A stretch of DNA of 26,480 nt from Promethearchaeota archaeon (GCA_008080735.1 SHMW01000066.1:1-26480); one strand, 5' to 3'; numbered from the stretch's first letter, positions 11,374 through 19,927 are shown. Made by a program: numbers and translations. Notes: generated from the letters alone by a model not told the origin.

Positions 11374-12309
11374 ATGTCAGTTCAAATGAAGGAATATGAA
11401 TGTGAGATATGCATCATCGGGGCGGGGCCAGCGGGACTAAGTGCGGGTGTATATTGCGGGCGTGCTGGTCGTGACACCATTATTCTTAAAGGAAAAGAGA
11501 AAGGCGCTCTCGAAAGAACGAAAGCAATAGAAAATTGGCTAGGAGAGCCAAAAATACAAGGAGATAGCTTATTACAGAAATTTAAGGATCACGTCAAAAG
11601 TATTGAAAATGTTCGCATAATCGAAGGTGATGTTATTTCATTAATGCTCGGAATGGGTAAAAATATGATCTCAACTAGAAATGCGAACCTCACTGCAGAT
11701 GCGGTTATAATTGCTACGGGGATGGGTAATCGTGAAGAAATTATAGAAGGTGAGTCCAAACTTGTAGGATATGGAGTATCTTATTGTGCACTCTGTGATG
11801 GACCTTTATATGTTGACAAAAAAGTGTTCCTTTATGGAGAAGACGAGGAATTAATTGAGGATGCGCTCATACTTGATCAAATGGGATGCCATGTAAATAT
11901 CATCACTCCTAAATCTCTCAATGAATTACCTAATGAAATTAAACAAGCTCAAGAAAAAGGAATTGATGTGATTCCTAACGCGGAAATTCTCGAAGTGGAA
12001 GCAAATTCTAATGGATTACTAGATAAAATAGATTATAAATTAGAAAATGATCAAGTTAAGGAAGCGGAATTAGACGGATTATTTATTTTTTCTCATGTCC
12101 CTTCAAATTCTATATTTAAGAAAGCGGGAGTAGAATTAGATGAAAACGGTAATATTAGTGTCAATGCACATCAAGAAACTAATCTAAAAGGGGTATTTGC
12201 CGCGGGGGATGTGACAGGTGGATTATATCAAGTGATTTTCGCTGTAGCTGAGGGTGGGCGTGCTGGAATTAATGCTGCAAAATATGTACGACACCTTCAA
12301 AAAGAATAA
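11374..12309 (+). CDS. trxB: Thioredoxin reductase-like flavoprotein with a degenerate NADPH-binding site
   Basis: GAGPAG FAD motif, IIATG, GVSYCALCDG redox CxxC, GVFAAGD. Confidence 0.9.
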   Translation: MSVQMKEYECEICIIGAGPAGLSAGVYCGRAGRDTIILKGKEKGALERTKAIENWLGEPKIQGDSLLQKFKDHVKSIENVRIIEGDVISLMLGMGKNMISTRNANLTADAVIIATGMGNREEIIEGESKLVGYGVSYCALCDGPLYVDKKVFLYGEDEELIEDALILDQMGCHVNIITPKSLNELPNEIKQAQEKGIDVIPNAEILEVEANSNGLLDKIDYKLENDQVKEAELDGLFIFSHVPSNSIFKKAGVELDENGNISVNAHQETNLKGVFAAGDVTGGLYQVIFAVAEGGRAGINAAKYVRHLQKE

Positions 12310-12315
12310 CTTTTC

Positions 12316-12356
12316 AGCTCACTCTTAAAGCTTAATTTTATACATATCTACAAATC
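12316..12356. repeat. Left copy of a 41-bp direct repeat (putative att / dif-like site)
   Basis: AGCTCACTCTTAAAGCTTAATTTTATACATATCTACAAATC matches 16749-16789 at 38/41 positions, with a 22-bp perfect core at 12331-12352. Confidence 0.9.
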
Positions 12357-12430
12357 TTATTATCTTAAATCCTTAGACATTTCAATTAAAATAGAGTTAT
12401 AATAGAACCAACTAATTGAATTCCAGGTTG

Positions 12431-12928
12431 TTATTTCTTTAGACTTATTTTCGTTTTAAATTCAATCCAAGGAATTACTGGTAAATTCTTTGTTTCTGGA
12501 ATTTTCTTCAAAATGTTTTTCAAATCGTTATCTTCACTCAAAAGAACCCCATTTAATGCTGCTGCAGTTGCAGCTATCCAACAATCCATGAGATCAATGT
12601 GTCCAGAATGTCTGATAATTGAGGCAATCATGCTTGCTTTTGGATTTAATTCACAATTAAAGATGTTGATAGGTAAACCAATCAAGGTTGGAAGAATCTT
12701 TTGATATCTATCTAGAACGTTAAAATCATTAGTTTTTCTATACACATTTAATAATTTATACATCGTTTCAATGAGACATATAGATGGTAAATAGACAAGA
12801 TATCCTTCAATCTCATTTTTCCAAACTCGTTTAAGATCACTTTCAAACTCATTATCCATCTTAATCTTTATACCAAATAAAGGTAAGATAAAACTTGTGT
12901 CAAGTATGAGAGGTTTAGTGTTCTTCAT
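12431..12928 (-). CDS. vapC: PIN-domain (VapC-like) toxin
   Basis: LILDTSFIL, ICLIET, DLMDCWIAATA and LLSED acidic PIN residues. Overlaps the upstream antitoxin gene. Confidence 0.88.
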   Translation of the reverse strand: MKNTKPLILDTSFILPLFGIKIKMDNEFESDLKRVWKNEIEGYLVYLPSICLIETMYKLLNVYRKTNDFNVLDRYQKILPTLIGLPINIFNCELNPKASMIASIIRHSGHIDLMDCWIAATAAALNGVLLSEDNDLKNILKKIPETKNLPVIPWIEFKTKISLKK

Positions 12929-13175
12929 TAGTTAATTTCTCCTGCAATATCCTTTCTTCTTCAATATCCTTTTCAATCTTTGTAGGCGTTCCCGTGTCAA
13001 TCACCGGCATACTTAATGCTTCTTCGATCGAATAGATCTTTTTGATGATTAACTCCCCCTTAAAAGCTTCTATTAGTACTTCATCTCCTGGATTAATACC
13101 CGCCATATCTCTTAAAGGCTTTTTAGGAAGAATTTCTCCCTTTTTCCCAACAATAGTTTTATCTTGAATGGTCAT
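12915..13175 (-). CDS. vapB: AbrB/MazE/SpoVT-family antitoxin
   Basis: VGKKGEILPKKPLRDMAGINPGDEV swapped-hairpin motif, directly upstream of the PIN gene. Confidence 0.88.
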   Translation of the reverse strand: MTIQDKTIVGKKGEILPKKPLRDMAGINPGDEVLIEAFKGELIIKKIYSIEEALSMPVIDTGTPTKIEKDIEEERILQEKLTNEEH

Positions 13176-13240
13176 ACAGATAGTATGTTTTTCGGAATAT
13201 TTAATTTTTGTCAGAAAATCTCAAAATGAAAATAATTTTA

Positions 13241-13265
13241 GGGGGAGACACTACGGGGGAGGGAG
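13241..13265. repeat. G-rich inter-module motif, copy 1 (variant)
   Basis: GGGGGAGACACTACGGGGGAGGGAG in a very AT-rich intergenic context. Confidence 0.85.
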
Positions 13266-13290
13266 CGTATAATTAATGAAGAAAAAAAAC

Positions 13291-13398
13291 TTAATCCTCT
13301 TTCTTGAAATTTTTATAATGAGTTTTTTCTAAATAATCTTCAAATTTGACCAGACTCTTATATAGCTTTGCCTTCTTAAGCTTTACCTTCTTAAGAAT
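13291..13398 (-). pseudogene. Remnant of the 3' end of a paralog of the 130-aa ORF (14385-14777)
   Basis: 13291-13380 matches 14385-14474 at 82/90 nt and encodes LKKAKLYKSLVKFEDYLEKTHYKNFKKED*. Contains a 15-bp tandem duplication (13366-13395). The frame is closed by a TGA just upstream. Confidence 0.85.
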
Positions 13399-13580
13399 CT
13401 TATTTTCCAAGGAATTTCATAGAATATGAGACGAAAAATTTACCTTTCCATCAAAAATTCCAATCTAATTCAAAGAAAACTATCGAAAATTGCCATCTAA
13501 ATGTATTTAAGAAAATATAGGGGATATTTGAAAAAATAGAATTTAGTTATTTGATTTTCTAATGAAAAATTTTTACAGGA

Positions 13581-13602
13581 GGGGGCACCACAAGGGAGGG
13601 AG
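13581..13602. repeat. G-rich inter-module motif, copy 2
   Basis: GGGGGCACCACAAGGGAGGGAG, flanked by TTTTACAGGA and ATAA. Confidence 0.9.
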
Positions 13603-13615
13603 ATAAAAGGATAAT

Positions 13616-13969
13616 TTAGGGTGATTCGAATCTAATCTCGTTTTCAGAAAGTATGATTTTTCCTGGGTTATTAAGTTTATTTACTGCATTATCTAAGTAT
13701 TTTTGAACTATACTAGCAATAATTTTTGGATCTCTTGGATGTAATTTTATATAAATAATCTTACACCTTTCTAGAAGTTCTTTTTTTATTGATAGGAAAT
13801 CAGAATCTAATGTGATGATTATGGCATTCTTTTTTATTGATAACTCTGCTACTTCACCATTCTTTATCCCAAGTTTATTTTCATCTTTCAAAGTGATTGT
13901 TTCATAGCCAAGCTTATTTATAATTTCTTTAATAGAAAGAGGTACATTTTCATCCAATAGAAATTTCAA
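13616..13969 (-). CDS. DUF5615 / Mut7-C PIN-like toxin (VapC45-like)
   Basis: MKFLLDENVP start and IIITLDSDF motif. Confidence 0.88.
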   Translation of the reverse strand: MKFLLDENVPLSIKEIINKLGYETITLKDENKLGIKNGEVAELSIKKNAIIITLDSDFLSIKKELLERCKIIYIKLHPRDPKIIASIVQKYLDNAVNKLNNPGKIILSENEIRFESP

Positions 13970-13972
13970 ATT

Positions 13973-14218
13973 CTATTGTACCTCCTTACTCAATATATTA
14001 TCTAAATTAACTTGAGAAAGGTTTTTTAATGCATCATTCCCTAATTCTATGACTTTGAGAAGAATTTGTCGATCAAGATGAGGATATTCTTTTTGAATTT
14101 CATCAATAGCATAATTCAAACCAACTAATTCATAAATTAAAGCAACAGGGATTCTCGTGCCCTTTATGACGGGCTTTCCTCCAAGGATTTCTGGGTTTGA
14201 TTCAATTAGATCCGACAT
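13973..14218 (-). CDS. DUF433 antitoxin (VapB45-like)
   Basis: NPEILGGKPVIKGTRIPV...EYPHL signature, 3 nt upstream of the DUF5615 gene. Confidence 0.92.
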   Translation of the reverse strand: MSDLIESNPEILGGKPVIKGTRIPVALIYELVGLNYAIDEIQKEYPHLDRQILLKVIELGNDALKNLSQVNLDNILSKEVQ

Positions 14219-14337
14219 TTTCTATGAAATAATAAAGAGATTCAGATATAAATATTTAATCGATAAATATGAAAAAACTCTTTATAATTAATGAAGAAAA
14301 ACGAAAATAAATTTTTTTTCTAAATTTCTTTTCAGAA

Positions 14338-14359
14338 GGGGGCACCACGGGGGAGGGAG
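14338..14359. repeat. G-rich inter-module motif, copy 3
   Basis: GGGGGCACCACGGGGGAGGGAG, flanked by TTTTCAGAA and ATAA. 20/22 identical to copy 2. Confidence 0.9.
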
Positions 14360-14384
14360 ATAATAATAAATGAAAAAAAAAAAC

Positions 14385-14777
14385 CTAATCTTCTTCCTTG
14401 AAATTTTTATAACGAATTTTTTCTAAATAATCTTCAAATTTGACCGGACTCTTATATAATTTTGCCTTCTTAAGAATTAAAGCTCCTTTTTCGGTTGTTA
14501 TAATCTCTTCAGGATCAAGATCAGTAAATAAAACTGTTTTTGATGAATCTACTAATTTTAACTCAAACATTTTTTCCATTGTTTCCTTCTCATAAGTATA
14601 TGTTGTTATGCCTGCAATTACTTCACTTTTATTACCAAATACTCTTCCATCTTTTAAAGTGAGAAATCCATCAATAATTATATAACTTCCAAGATGTAAA
14701 TCACGATATTCTGCTATTGTATTCCAAATATGATCATAAGATTCTTTTGAATCAATAATATGAATCCAGCTATACAT
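14385..14777 (-). CDS. Hypothetical protein (130 aa), candidate immunity protein
   Basis: Intact ORF directly downstream of the nuclease-domain gene, with an AAGGTAG SD-like and TTTTTAAAT TATA-like sequence upstream. No family recognised; function inferred from context only. Confidence 0.7.
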   Translation of the reverse strand: MYSWIHIIDSKESYDHIWNTIAEYRDLHLGSYIIIDGFLTLKDGRVFGNKSEVIAGITTYTYEKETMEKMFELKLVDSSKTVLFTDLDPEEIITTEKGALILKKAKLYKSPVKFEDYLEKIRYKNFKEED

Positions 14778-14864
14778 TTTTTTCTACCTTTAATAAAAAA
14801 GTATATTTAAAAATTTAGTTTATATTTTTAGTTTAACAATCAAAATTTATTTTCCTTCCATTAT

Positions 14865-16436
14865 TTAAAAAGTCCTCCAATCTCTATATGGAATTTTAGA
14901 TAATGTAATTTTTGTCAGTTCTTCAAATTTACTAATGATAAAATCCAGTCTATCTTCAGGATCAACATTATAATCTACTACGATCAAATAATATCCATCT
15001 TTATTATTCTTCTCAAAATGATCAACTTTATCTTCATCTCTAGTTATTAAATCTCGCCACGGTTTATATACTTTTGAATATTTTTTAGTCCCTTCAACTA
15101 CATCTAATTGTTTAGAAACAGCCTTATAAGCTTCAAATCCTATTTTTGGATCAGGATCATGTTGTTGACCTTGATACTCAATTGCTAATTTAATTAAATT
15201 TCCATTTTTATCTTCTATATTTAATTCTACATATCCATCAACATGAACATTTGCATGAATAAGTCCTTCTAATTCTGGAAATATTTTTGTAAGACCATAT
15301 TCGATTTGATAATTATTTTCTATATATCCTAATTCTTTAAATATATATTCACATATCTCATTGGTGATTTTCTGATTTATATACTGTCCGTCGCACTTTG
15401 GGCAATTACCCACATTCCTTTTAATATTATTATACGTATTTTCCCATACATGACCGCAGTCTTCATGTTTCCATGTTAATATTGCATCACCATAGAATTT
15501 GTTTTTACCATTATAAGATTCTATACATGCCAGAGTAAATTCCTCAAAGCTCAATTCCTTATTAGGATCATTTGGTGAAACTAATTTCAATCCTCTACTA
15601 GTTGCTTCATCCTTTGCGTTTTTTAAAGCATTTCGTAAGTATGTACTCTTTTCTCTAAAAAAATCTTCTAATATTTTTGCGGATTCTAAGGTCATTCCAA
15701 AAGCGGTTATGAACGCTACATATCTCCTTGCCATCATTTCATTAAGTTCTAGGTATGCCTCTTTAGACAAATCAACAATTCTGATAACATCATTTTGGGA
15801 AACGAGGTCACTATCTACATATTGGTTGGTTTCGGTATTAACTCCTGTAGTTATGTAGAAGGTTTCACCATTAGATTCGTGGACATACTCAATTTGATGG
15901 ACGATTTTAATTTCATCTCGATAAAATACAATGATATCTCCTTTTTTATAATGTGTGCCTTCTGGCATTAATCTCATAGGTACTTCAGCACCAGCTTGTA
16001 GCCCAAGTATGCCAGACATCGATTCACTCAGTACTTTTAATCTTCTTACATTCTTGTCCGTTTTTTCAAAGGAATTTTCATTGGAACGAGACGGAAAATC
16101 TACCTTTTCGGCAATATCCCGTTCAAATCTCAAGGGGAGGTCACTCATTAGGTATGCGCCTACACAGAGGACTAGCTGCTCGATGTGGCTTAGTAATTCC
16201 CCAGAGGTACGTTTCTGATTAATCCTTGTTAAGACTTCTTGTCTAACTTCTAAAATTTTACCGTCAGAGGATTCAATTATATCCATTCCATCATAGGACC
16301 GACCGGCAAGTGTCTCGACGGCATACCGAAGCTCTTCTACAGGAAAATGAAGTGTGTCCAGCGTTTCTTTGGGTGATTCGGATATGGGTTTCTGGGGGTC
16401 GAATAGTCGCGAATAAAGAGCTTTGATTTGGTTCAT
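14865..16436 (-). CDS. Multidomain protein: S26-like (Ser-His) peptidase + Zn ribbon + REase-like (DUF559/Vsr-type) nuclease; probably the C-terminal remnant of a larger gene
   Basis: aa ~133-222: VLSESM, GDIIVF, IVHQI, YITTGVN...D (cf. Sec11/SipW VxSGSM, GDIIVF, IVHRV, TKGDN..D). aa 322-348: WKHEDCGHVW...CPKC. aa 398-426: HVDGY...LAIEYQGQQH. Confidence 0.78.
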   Translation of the reverse strand: MNQIKALYSRLFDPQKPISESPKETLDTLHFPVEELRYAVETLAGRSYDGMDIIESSDGKILEVRQEVLTRINQKRTSGELLSHIEQLVLCVGAYLMSDLPLRFERDIAEKVDFPSRSNENSFEKTDKNVRRLKVLSESMSGILGLQAGAEVPMRLMPEGTHYKKGDIIVFYRDEIKIVHQIEYVHESNGETFYITTGVNTETNQYVDSDLVSQNDVIRIVDLSKEAYLELNEMMARRYVAFITAFGMTLESAKILEDFFREKSTYLRNALKNAKDEATSRGLKLVSPNDPNKELSFEEFTLACIESYNGKNKFYGDAILTWKHEDCGHVWENTYNNIKRNVGNCPKCDGQYINQKITNEICEYIFKELGYIENNYQIEYGLTKIFPELEGLIHANVHVDGYVELNIEDKNGNLIKLAIEYQGQQHDPDPKIGFEAYKAVSKQLDVVEGTKKYSKVYKPWRDLITRDEDKVDHFEKNNKDGYYLIVVDYNVDPEDRLDFIISKFEELTKITLSKIPYRDWRTF

Positions 16437-16748
16437 ATCTAGGGGAGCAAACAGACCTTCATAGGGGTCTCCTATCGCAATATCGGAGAGCTGGACATCA
16501 AAGGCAGTCTCGAGGTGCCCCGATGAAAGAGATTGCTCTGAAATTATAGTGAACTCTTGAGGTTCTGAGATTCTGTTTTAAAGGCTTCCTTCAACAGTAG
16601 ATACTCTCGTTTGTCCATAAGTTTGAAGCAAGTCGGTCTCTATTTCAATTTTATTACAGATTCGAGAGGTTCGCAAATTCAGTCTTCGATCCCGAAATGG
16701 GCAGTCCTATAGGTTGTTCCGAAATACTCGGTGATTTGCTTGATGGTT
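16437..16748 (-). pseudogene. Decayed 5' extension of the 523-aa gene
   Basis: The same frame stays open for 47 codons upstream of the ATG (to 16577), hits TAA at 16578-16580, then is open again to 16706. GC-rich, coding-like sequence continues up to the right direct repeat. Confidence 0.6.
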
Positions 16749-16789
16749 AGCTCATTCTTAAAACTTAATTTTATACATATCTACATATC
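16749..16789. repeat. Right copy of the 41-bp direct repeat (putative att / dif-like site, in the xer promoter region)
   Basis: AGCTCATTCTTAAAACTTAATTTTATACATATCTACATATC, ending 38 bp before the xer ATG. Confidence 0.9.
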
Positions 16790-16826
16790 ACACCATTTTT
16801 TGTAAGATTTCACGAATAATTGTAAT

Positions 16827-17750
16827 ATGAACGATTTTAAAATATCTGATTTTATCGATGATTTTCTTATAGCGAAAGAGGTTGAAGAAGGTTGTCGTCC
16901 TTCAACAATTCGAGCTTATAGATATGATTTAGAGAAATTTATGAAAATTGTTGGAGATGTGGAAATAAATCATAAATTAATGCGTCAAAAAGTGCGCTTT
17001 TTTCTGAAAAAGCTCAAAGATAAAGGATATACCAAACGGTCTATCAGCCGGAAAATCGCTTGTTTACGTTCATTTTTTAAATTTCTTAGTCTAAATGAAT
17101 ACGTTGAAAAAAATCCAATGAATACGATAAAAAGCCCGAAAATTAGAAGTGAAGAAAGCCTACCAAAATTTTTAGATTTGAAAGATATGAAAAAAATCTT
17201 TGAGGATCTTAAGAATCGCAAGAAGTTTAATTCAAAAAAAAGCAAACGCTACTATTTAATGGTAAGGTTGTTATATGCGACAATGGCTAGAGTAAGTGAA
17301 TTATGTAATATTCGAATTCGAGATGTGAATTTCGAGAAGGGATATATACGATTGCGGGGCAAAGGTAATAAAGAAAGAATAGTTCCAGTGGATAAAAAGA
17401 CGCTTTATTTTATTAAGGAACATTTAGATAATAGGCTCGTTTATGAACCAGATGATTTTTTGATCGTAAATACGCGAAATGAGCAACTTCATCCGAGAGT
17501 AGTACAAAATGATATTAATATCATAAAGGAAAAATGCGGATTTCCTGAATCTAAAGATATCACTCCCCATGTCTTTCGGCACACAGGAGCCACACACTTG
17601 CGAAGGTCTGGTATGGATATAAGTGAGCTCCAAGATATTCTTGGGCATTCCTCACCAAATACCACTCGAATATATGCTAAGAATGATATCACGAAACTTA
17701 AGGAGTCTTATAATGTAATGCATCCTCTTAGTAATTCAAGAGAACTCTAA
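16827..17750 (+). CDS. xerA: XerA/XerC/D-type tyrosine recombinase
   Basis: SAM-like N-domain (STIRAYRYDL, SISRKIACLRSFFKFL) and a full catalytic set: R (MARVSE), K (GKGNK), HxxR (HVFRH), LGH, Y (TTRIY). 307 aa, with no IntI-specific insertion. Confidence 0.9.
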   Translation: MNDFKISDFIDDFLIAKEVEEGCRPSTIRAYRYDLEKFMKIVGDVEINHKLMRQKVRFFLKKLKDKGYTKRSISRKIACLRSFFKFLSLNEYVEKNPMNTIKSPKIRSEESLPKFLDLKDMKKIFEDLKNRKKFNSKKSKRYYLMVRLLYATMARVSELCNIRIRDVNFEKGYIRLRGKGNKERIVPVDKKTLYFIKEHLDNRLVYEPDDFLIVNTRNEQLHPRVVQNDINIIKEKCGFPESKDITPHVFRHTGATHLRRSGMDISELQDILGHSSPNTTRIYAKNDITKLKESYNVMHPLSNSREL

Positions 17751-18736: not shown

Positions 18737-19927
18737 ATGGATGAGAATAAATTTCGCGCGGAATTTAGTAAAAAATCAGTATTCCGACAAGCTAGCTCGT
18801 TAGATTTTAGTTATGTGCCCGACACACTTTATTGCCGTGATGAGACTATCAAAGAATTGATACATAACTTCCGAAGAATCATTGAGGAGGACATGCAACC
18901 CACAATCAATATTCTAATCACCGGAAAAGGAGGTGTGGGTAAAACGGTCACGGCACGCTATTTTGGAAAGAACTTCCGCACGATCGCATTGGAAAATAAT
19001 GTGAAAATTTTCATAGAATATTTCAATTGCATCAATTTTCGCTCTAAGAGTAAAATAATTCGTGAGCTCTTGGCGAAATATACTCATGGTTCGGGAAGAG
19101 GGTTTTCAGATGATGAGGCAATTAAATTAATTTTATCCAAGCTCATTCGGGATAAAGGCTATATATTACTTATTATTGATGAGATACATCTACTGAAACC
19201 AAAAGAGGTTTGGGCTCTATTAGACATTGCAGAATCCTATGGCCATCAAAACGCGAAATTATCTATCTTGCTTATTTCAAGAACAAAAGATTGGATGCGG
19301 ATTGAAACAGAAAGGATTCTTAGCAGGCTAAATTCAAAAATAAAATTAAGTCCTTATAACTATGAAGAATCCTTAAAAATTCTAAAATACCGCACTGAAA
19401 TCGCATTTAAAGATGGTGTGATAAGTGATGATATTGTTGAGATGATTGCCCAAATAGTCGTACAACATGGGAATATGAGACATGGGATTGAAATTCTTCG
19501 AAAATGTGGGCTATATTCAGATAAAGAGGGATTTGATCACATTACAGCAGATATGGTACGAGAAGCCTCAGATCAAGTATATCCAACATTCCGAGGAGAT
19601 ATAGTAGATAAATTGAATGATCAGGAGCTATTTGCACTTTATGGTATTGCCCAATCTCTATTAACCAGGGAGGAGCCCTACACGATTGTAGATGACGCGT
19701 TTGAACAGTATAATATCATATGTGAGACGTATGATATGGATTCTCATGTTAAAATGTCATTTAGGAAATATGTGCGCCAACTGGATGAGTTAAAAATCAT
19801 CGCGACCAAAACTGTACGAATTAATGAAAATAAACGAGGAAGGCACCTTGAGATTACGATGCTAGATATCCCTCCAAAAAAATTGTTGGAATTATTAGAT
19901 AATATCTTCGAGAAAAAATTCCAATAG
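18737..19927 (+). CDS. cdc6: Orc1/Cdc6 family replication initiator
   Basis: LDFSYVPDTLYCRD, Walker A GKGGVGKT, Walker B LLIIDE, PY...IL..R, G(N)MR sensor 2, and a C-terminal winged helix with RGR. Confidence 0.93.
   Translation: MDENKFRAEFSKKSVFRQASSLDFSYVPDTLYCRDETIKELIHNFRRIIEEDMQPTINILITGKGGVGKTVTARYFGKNFRTIALENNVKIFIEYFNCINFRSKSKIIRELLAKYTHGSGRGFSDDEAIKLILSKLIRDKGYILLIIDEIHLLKPKEVWALLDIAESYGHQNAKLSILLISRTKDWMRIETERILSRLNSKIKLSPYNYEESLKILKYRTEIAFKDGVISDDIVEMIAQIVVQHGNMRHGIEILRKCGLYSDKEGFDHITADMVREASDQVYPTFRGDIVDKLNDQELFALYGIAQSLLTREEPYTIVDDAFEQYNIICETYDMDSHVKMSFRKYVRQLDELKIIATKTVRINENKRGRHLEITMLDIPPKKLLELLDNIFEKKFQ

Follow-up and report, generated by a model that had tools for sequence, protein, structure and literature searches.

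The question raised by the present locus is why copies of one short, G-rich sequence separate small, unrelated genes in an archaeal genome. The locus is situated in a stretch of DNA of 26,480 nucleotides (nt) from Promethearchaeota archaeon (GCA_008080735.1, SHMW01000066.1:1-26480), hereafter the window, whose numbering is used throughout and which carries three co-oriented copies of this motif. The arrangement is classed as a gene-cassette array whose junction site is of a new type. The motif is interpreted as the site at which the packets of a cassette system of Promethearchaeota (Loki-type Asgard archaea) are joined, and recombination is its most likely function. Copies of the motif are conserved in sequence, form co-oriented arrays and lie near gene ends; homology between loci breaks at them, and whole packets of genes bounded by them recur in unrelated contexts. 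It is on these grounds that the motif is regarded as a cassette junction.

A search of the window with the 22-nt core of the motif, allowing up to 3 mismatches, returned three matches, all on the + strand (13244–13265, 13581–13602 and 14338–14359), and no match in any of 100 shuffled versions of the window. Searching the entire assembly (4.15 Mb, 140 contigs, 33.6 % G+C) by pattern, Hamming distance and profile did not reveal a fourth copy. The original prediction of three co-oriented copies, absent from the remainder of the window, is thereby confirmed and holds for the assembly as a whole. Copy 3 is the best copy, with the core GGGGGCACCACGGGGGAGGGAG at 14338–14359 and TTTTCAGAA before it; copy 2 contains two substitutions (CACCACAAGGGAGGGAG), and copy 1 is decayed by a 3-nt insertion plus one substitution (GGGGGAGACACTACGGGGGAGGGAG). 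The resemblance between the flanks of copies 2 and 3 that had been pointed out earlier (T-run and CAG.A before, ATAA after) is real and belongs to an extended consensus present in other genomes.

In total, 249 distinct copies were collected from metagenome-assembled genomes (MAGs) of Promethearchaeota, i.e., of the Loki type, and from sediment metagenomes. Their extended consensus reads CTTTTTTAGGAGGGGGCACCACGGGGGAGGGAG, followed by ATAAT- or ATAATA-like bases and often preceded by CCTA, and the site as a whole comprises ~32–37 nt. Flanks beyond the consensus are unrelated between copies, and the near-identity of the site bears out its prediction as a conserved cis element. The consensus core GGAGGGGG-CACCAC-GGGGGAGG forms a perfect 22-nt mirror (not inverted) repeat with purine arms and is identical, and hence a perfect mirror, in 162 of 247 copies. 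Each of the window copies differs from the mirror by at least one base, the left arm of copy 3 reading GAAGGGGG (core, e.g., 14335–14356). The conserved part of the site is its centre rather than outer boxes, and no GTTRRRY box is contained in the consensus.

With regard to distribution, a 17-nt pattern (one mismatch allowed) matched 15 out of 100 related genomes, which mostly belong to the same family and often display the matches as single-strand clusters; the reversed control pattern gave almost no matches in these 100 genomes. The exact 18-mer was found in 71 stretches of a species-representative genome collection, 37 of which are titled Promethearchaeota or Promethearchaeia, 11 'uncultured archaeon' and one Hermodarchaeota, and the remaining matches, mostly in G+C-rich bacteria, were taken as chance. 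More than 120 metagenome contigs harbour the exact 25-mer. Genomes contain 1–9 copies (3–9 in each of four other genomes searched whole), and arrays are also present in CP070831.1, a record titled complete chromosome. The motif is thus conserved across Loki-type Asgard genomes and metagenomes, as the survey of Asgard MAGs proposed with the original prediction has revealed. A single match in a viral contig was rejected as chance (the contig is GC-rich with open reading frames (ORFs) in all frames). Scanning of positions 12000–17000 against Rfam at a permissive threshold yielded chance-level matches only, and no paper containing the motif sequence on either strand was found. Readings as C/D-box small RNA, tRNA 3'-end (GGGGGCACCA) or Shine-Dalgarno sequence with mini-ORF were rejected by eye, as boxes, T-arm and start codon are not conserved across copies.

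The geometry of the arrays was evaluated for 173 non-redundant loci, 121 of which contain a single copy. Among neighbouring copies less than 6 kb apart, 66 pairs are co-oriented versus 2 opposed, and the median spacing is 1236 nt. Read with the G-rich strand from left to right, the right-hand neighbour is an opposite-strand gene in 53 of 72 cases, with its stop mostly 11–60 nt from the motif. The left-hand neighbour is a same-strand gene in 35 cases, ending mostly 14–55 nt before the motif, and an opposite-strand gene in 38 cases, the distance to the gene start being 65 nt or more with a single exception. These distances place the motif in gaps that follow the ends of genes and precede promoters. 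On the G strand it is preceded by a T-run and followed by an A-rich stretch (T-rich on the other strand), such that T-rich tracts meet incoming transcription on both strands of the motif.

Packets delimited by the motif consist of one to three genes, each packet apparently with its own promoter and T-rich terminator. The encoded proteins include PIN, ParE, DUF433/DUF5615, AbrB, AbiTii, SIR2, Schlafen/AlbA_2, AAA_21/AAA_15, HNH and GNAT proteins, methyltransferases, numerous leucine-rich repeat (LRR) proteins and numerous proteins without family assignment. Type II toxin-antitoxin pairs, defence-type genes, genes for LRR proteins and small unknowns make up most of the cargo, which is of a kind typical of cassette arrays. 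Several packets display a promoter-like GGAAAAAGATATATTT box 25–35 nt to the right of the motif and separate from it. Likewise to the right of the motif, a GGAAAAAGATATATTTCT box resembling archaeal BRE/TATA elements is common to several packet families (L086 5400–5440, L071, L202, L148) and probably represents the promoter of the packet on the right.

The relation of the motif to homology between loci was investigated by blastn comparison of 600 nt on either side of every copy. Thousands of matches covered the motif only, and many had long one-sided homology; two-sided flank homology was restricted to the same or a nearly identical locus. In a larger set, copy pairs with flank homology share the left flank only in 97 cases, the right flank only in 59 and both in 9, and they compose 23 left-sharing and 24 right-sharing families. 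Homology begins at the T-run and breaks off with the final G of GGGAGGGAG. Alignments between loci (at least 80 % identity over at least 300 nt) have 599 internal ends, 213 of which are located not more than 50 nt from a copy, compared to a mean of 25 and a maximum of 42 in 500 trials of random placement.

Where 8-kb loci are otherwise unrelated, their homology is confined to a packet running from motif to motif, such as a packet encoding a pair of proteins of 74 and 139 amino acids (aa) common to L085, L068 and L066 (877–906 nt), a packet with a VapBC-like pair common to L094 and L113 (861 nt) and, in the window, the DUF5615/DUF433 packet bounded by copies 2 and 3 (13571–14377), which matches L072 (1452–2272) from motif to motif over 823 nt at 85 % identity and with no further homology. 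Array maps reveal identical packets in differing orders and with differing neighbours. Individual packet types hold a fixed polarity to the motif, yet are transcribed in one direction in some types and in the other direction in others. Moreover, pairs of loci that are 99–100 % identical part exactly at one or the other motif edge, by which the crossovers are confined to a core about 29 nt long.

The proposal that the motif divides the island into cassette-like modules is borne out by these data, since module boundaries in other genomes coincide with the motif. Only in part did the suggestion stand that each copy follows a minus-strand module. The distances are correct, as the stop of the DUF5615 gene is located 13 nt beyond the end of copy 2 and that of a gene for a 130-aa protein (14385–14777, minus strand) 25 nt beyond the end of copy 3. 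A rule by which the motif would belong to such a module does not hold, because modules of either gene direction occur on either side of the motif in other genomes and crossovers fall inside the motif.

A 355-nt segment without an obvious ORF, ending in the motif, was observed three times in one contig of another genome, the copies being 97–99 % identical. A partial copy of this segment without the motif is present in a second genome. Full and partial copies together are located at L031 4824–5179 and 14154–14507, L032 12482–12837 and L033 11690–11952.

We consider it slightly on the probable side that the motif is a recombination site read by a trans-acting factor encoded elsewhere, as in integrons and dif modules. 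Packets would in this case be separated by co-oriented copies of one ~32–37-nt site, and DNA exchange would take place inside the site, whereby packets would be gained, lost, reordered and moved between genomes as whole units. The site would be recognised by a trans-acting recombinase not encoded beside the arrays, and a packet would be excised as a circle and re-inserted at another copy. Recombination at such a site accounts for the strict co-orientation, the sharp junctions, the behaviour of packets as units and the confinement of the site to accessory DNA; the exchange is presumably site-specific rather than homologous and would proceed via circular intermediates. Possible, if on balance doubtful, is a cassette capture specific to Loki-type archaea, with a non-palindromic G-rich mirror repeat as site and an enzyme outside the tyrosine and serine families, or XerA in an unprecedented use. 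The site might then be recognised as a single-stranded or quadruplex structure.

Several results weigh against a site read by a recombinase. Neither circular cassettes or contigs nor collinear insertion/deletion variants at one locus were found, the latter in comparisons between near-identical loci. Most loci are from MAGs and metagenome contigs, and some of the high-identity breaks could therefore be assembly joins. An identity of 30–40 bases could also support homologous exchange without a dedicated enzyme. Dyad symmetry and a hairpin, as present in known tyrosine-recombinase and attC sites, are absent from the site. Likewise, no candidate enzyme emerged from the vicinity of the arrays. A tblastn search with XerA of the window did not detect a Xer homologue near other arrays (one weak match of 25 %), and a survey of tyrosine recombinases covered 60 relatives. 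In genome G016 (4 copies, 99 % complete) XerA is the sole clear tyrosine recombinase and is encoded on another contig. Serine recombinases were not found in 11 genomes of the motif-rich genus. In Pfam scans of 150 neighbour families, the 25 families listed, those matched by most members, included neither integrases nor resolvases nor transposases, and 10 further recurrent neighbours analysed with Pfam included no recombinase or transposase.

The gene for a tyrosine recombinase that is divergent from the window array had been taken as an integron-like trait. This link found no support on closer inspection: the gene product scores 241 bits with the equivalog model recomb_XerA_Arch (cut-off 220) and 99 bits with the integron-integrase model TIGR02249 (cut-off 265), and xerA is the only clear Phage_integrase (PF00589) gene in this genome. 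Furthermore, xerA resides beside the same trxR-like gene in relatives that lack the array, and no Xer homologue accompanies the arrays elsewhere.

Structural properties of the site were studied with single-stranded DNA folds of 121 nt around three copies on both strands. These folds are no better than those of shuffled sequences (z +0.15 to +1.3), and the lack of a hairpin defines the motif as neither attC-like nor dif-like, in agreement with the earlier description as not palindromic and not attC-like. A two-layer G-quadruplex is predicted for the G strand (ViennaRNA with G-quadruplex terms). Covariation preserving the mirror symmetry was not found among the variants, with 6 compensated positions versus 7.2 expected.

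These properties are relevant to the main alternative, that the motif is a conserved element of another kind, i.e., a bidirectional insulator or terminator or a roadblock formed by a protein or by a G-quadruplex or triplex, which we regard as rather unlikely. Shuffling would then be a side effect of ordinary homologous recombination, or of double crossovers driven by transformation, between identical copies of 30–40 nt. The position between gene 3' ends with gene starts almost always at least 65 nt away, the preceding T-run and the following A-rich stretch, the lack of a recombinase linked to the arrays, the predicted quadruplex and the purine-rich perfect mirror repeat of the core would all suit such an element. 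However, the motif does not occur behind ordinary genes, amounts to only 3 copies per 4 Mb and is missing from 85 of the 100 relatives, and a general signal would not be expected to be confined to mobile packets. Its near-invariance across genera points to a factor reading the sequence rather than to a loose structure, and the variants lose the mirror symmetry. In addition, seen from the left packet, the motif precedes a promoter as frequently as it follows a stop. A generic archaeal terminator was rejected although the consensus includes a T-run and gene ends are close, since neither the remainder of the genome nor 85 of the 100 relatives contain the full motif. A dispersed repeat of the type of miniature inverted-repeat transposable elements (MITEs) or repetitive extragenic palindromes was rejected in view of the low copy numbers (3 here, 3–9 in the four other whole genomes) and the lack of an inverted repeat. 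Occurrence behind housekeeping genes, by which the original prediction would have given way to a generic terminator or MITE, was not observed; this and the 1–9 copies in relatives exclude the motif from both classes.

Quite improbable, in our estimate, is that the motif forms the end of non-autonomous, one-ended transposable cassettes mobilised by a transposase encoded elsewhere (e.g., of the HUH/rolling-circle type), the elements inserting preferentially beside an existing copy so that arrays grow. The 121 loci with a single copy and the threefold occurrence of the non-coding 355-nt segment with its motif in one contig would conform to this mechanism, as would the sequence of the motif itself, for which mismatch is 6.7 % between pairs sharing the left flank, 12.9 % between those sharing only the right flank and 13.8 % between those sharing neither, hinting at inheritance with the left packet. 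When crossovers were mapped from motif variants, the trend towards the left flank nevertheless proved weak, and it is contradicted by clear cases of a motif accompanying the right flank, namely L062/L165 (100 % identity) and a 150-nt duplication in the window. Target-site duplications, terminal inverted repeats, hairpins or a transposase were not seen, and single copies may reflect short contigs or decayed partners. Hardly credible is that the shuffling is only apparent and arises from contigs mis-joined at a short repeat during metagenome assembly. Nearly all loci are indeed from MAGs or metagenome contigs, and some of the breaks separate 99–100 % identical sequences, but motif-bounded packets recur at 84–92 % identity, that is, in different species and independent assemblies, and the arrays of CP070831.1 are part of a record titled complete chromosome. 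Also, with about 37 nt the motif is shorter than the final k-mers of common assemblers.

Comparison of the proposed recombination site with known systems reveals the closest parallels in integrons and clusters of attC sites lacking integron-integrases (CALINs). As in the motif arrays, small, unrelated accessory packets, in which genes for toxin-antitoxin systems, defence and acetyltransferases abound, are separated by co-oriented short sites; identical packets are ordered differently from genome to genome, and most arrays have no adjoining integrase. The defining arrangement of integrons, co-oriented sites between exchangeable cassettes, was thus found here as well (66 versus 2 pairs; recurring packets). 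In contrast, the attC sites of integrons are conserved in structure and variable in sequence, being imperfect palindromes that form single-stranded hairpins with RYYYAAC and GTTRRRY boxes, whereas the motif is near-invariant, G-rich and non-palindromic, without hairpin or R''/L''/L'/R' boxes. Integrons encode IntI, a tyrosine recombinase with an IntI-specific insertion, beside the array, and no IntI was found with the motif arrays. Unlike integron cassettes, motif packets contain genes of either orientation and seem to be equipped with promoters of their own. Classical attC clusters have been reported from Archaea, with enrichment in Asgard genomes (Ghaly et al. 2022, PMC9668308); neither the text of that article nor those of its supplements that were searched contain the motif sequence.

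The pdif modules of Acinetobacter plasmids and integrative mobile elements exploiting Xer (IMEX) resemble the motif packets as discrete modules, often with toxin-antitoxin genes, that have short conserved bounds and no recombinase of their own. They use the host Xer, which would be the only classical site-specific recombinase available here, XerA being the only clear tyrosine recombinase in the genomes G000 and G016. Sites of the pdif type alternate in orientation. Unlike dif and pdif sites, the core of the motif is a mirror repeat without dyad, and its copies point one way; a dif-type site consists of 11-bp inverted arms around a 6-bp spacer (PMC2958812), the sites of Xer/dif modules more broadly of two inverted arms of ~11 bp and a centre of 6–8 bp. 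The closeness of motif and xerA in the window, in contrast to Xer modules, reflects conserved synteny and the insertion of an island. Tandem accretion at one att site likewise generates directly repeated sites between successive insertions, and the island as a whole matches the accretion signature by its flanking 44-nt repeat and the empty site in relatives. The G-rich sites differ in that they bound packets of 0.3–2 kb without an integrase and, unlike a tRNA-type target, are common to genera and to many chromosomal places. The G-quadruplex element at pilE of Neisseria is a G-rich, strand-specific, non-palindromic cis element stimulating recombination of cassette-like DNA; it occurs only once, ahead of a single expression locus, where the gene conversion that it drives depends on RecA. 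The motif differs from it by being located at every junction and by its quadruplex being only predicted. Aloposons were dismissed as a counterpart, being unrelated.

The motif provides a simple sequence handle for the exchangeable packets of Loki-type genomes, with their toxin-antitoxin, defence, LRR and many unknown genes, and can be used for following the flow of packets between species. If a dedicated enzyme reads the site, the integron principle would have been invented a second time and independently, with a site of an entirely different nature, which might serve as a useful site-specific recombination tool for archaea. If no such enzyme exists, a conserved element of 35 nt would be enough to organise modular gene exchange. 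Should cassette capture by a non-classical enzyme be true, this would be a mechanism of gene-cassette exchange without described counterpart.

All three motif copies of the genome are contained in one island that relatives lack (Table 1). The island resides between a trxR-like gene (11374–12309) and xerA, two genes that are adjacent in four genomes of the same genus and in one genome of another genus. The gap between them measures 98–147 nt in four of these five and about 740 nt in the fifth (G002), where it contains only an ORF of 65 aa and neither motif nor repeat. The motif was not found at the trxR-xerA site of any of the five, and the 4.4 kb separating both genes in the window are therefore an insertion. 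The insertion is flanked by a 44-nt direct repeat, the 22-nt core of which has only these two copies in the genome, and the empty sites of the four relatives with the short gap contain one stretch related to it. Flanking repeat and empty site are the signature of integration at an att-type site. This att-type repeat is a different site from the G-rich motif, and the position of the array next to xerA hence reflects where the island landed. With only copy 3 intact and copies 1 and 2 decayed, the window array would appear to be no longer active in this genome.

Table 1 Features of the island and its surroundings in the window
Feature	Position	Strand	Basis
44-nt direct repeat, left copy (attL-like)	12314–12357	+	Alignment, 40/44 identical
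Cassette cargo: PIN (12431–12928) and AbrB/MazE-like (12915–13175) pair, left of copy 1	12431–13175	-	Pfam
Junction motif copy 1	13231–13270	+	nhmmer profile, 25.1 bits
Decayed cassette remnant	13266–13566	.	Repeat family D1 and alignment
Junction motif copy 2	13567–13608	+	nhmmer profile, 34.9 bits; 2 mismatches to 22-mer
Cassette cargo: DUF5615 PIN-like (13616–13969) and DUF433 (13973–14218) toxin-antitoxin pair	13616–14218	-	Pfam
Junction motif copy 3	14321–14365	+	nhmmer profile, 45.9 bits; 0 mismatches to 22-mer
Cassette cargo: 523-aa protein and 130-aa partner of no known family	14385–16436	-	NCBIfam, structure neighbours
44-nt direct repeat, right copy (attR-like), just upstream of xerA	16747–16790	+	Alignment, 40/44 identical
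xerA, housekeeping tyrosine recombinase (context)	16827–17750	+	NCBIfam, conserved synteny

Pfam confirmed the gene identities assigned earlier from the DNA, i.e., PIN, AbrB/MazE-like, DUF5615, DUF433 and the Xer-type recombinase. The 523-aa protein (14865–16436, minus strand) possesses an S26 signal-peptidase-like domain at residues 131–219 (NCBIfam TIGR02228, E 4e-10) and a tail resembling zinc ribbons, restriction endonucleases (REases) and DUF2726; its structure neighbours in the atlas are DUF4379, DUF723 and DUF2726 proteins of low TM-score. In several other genomes, relatives of 400–1030 aa are encoded by the first gene of small operons with the motif at their end. As a candidate for the enzyme it was rejected, since it combines a peptidase-like domain with a Zn-ribbon/REase-like tail, has no recombinase signal and behaves as cargo. 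Its reading frame remains open for 47 codons upstream of the ATG and, after one stop, for 42 more in-frame codons (16578–16706), a stretch that stops short of the right 44-nt repeat.

The synteny of the trxR-like gene, xerA and an Orc1/Cdc6 gene (18737–19927) is conserved in the genus and beyond, and this region may be a replication-origin neighbourhood.

Copies 1 and 3 are part of the 150-nt direct duplication mentioned above (13236–13385 versus 14330–14479, 86 % identical), which takes in the 3' end of the gene for the 130-aa protein and corresponds to what had been termed a remnant. Within the remnant, positions 13270–13385 duplicate the 3' end of this gene together with the spacer (14364–14479). 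In copies 1 and 3, the GGGAGGGAG is followed after 10–12 nt by a + strand mini-ORF of 18 codons (MKKKNLI...FF; 13274–13330 and 14370–14426), which is antisense to the terminal part of the gene for the 130-aa protein. No such ORF follows copy 2, and the mini-ORF is probably a side effect of the duplication.

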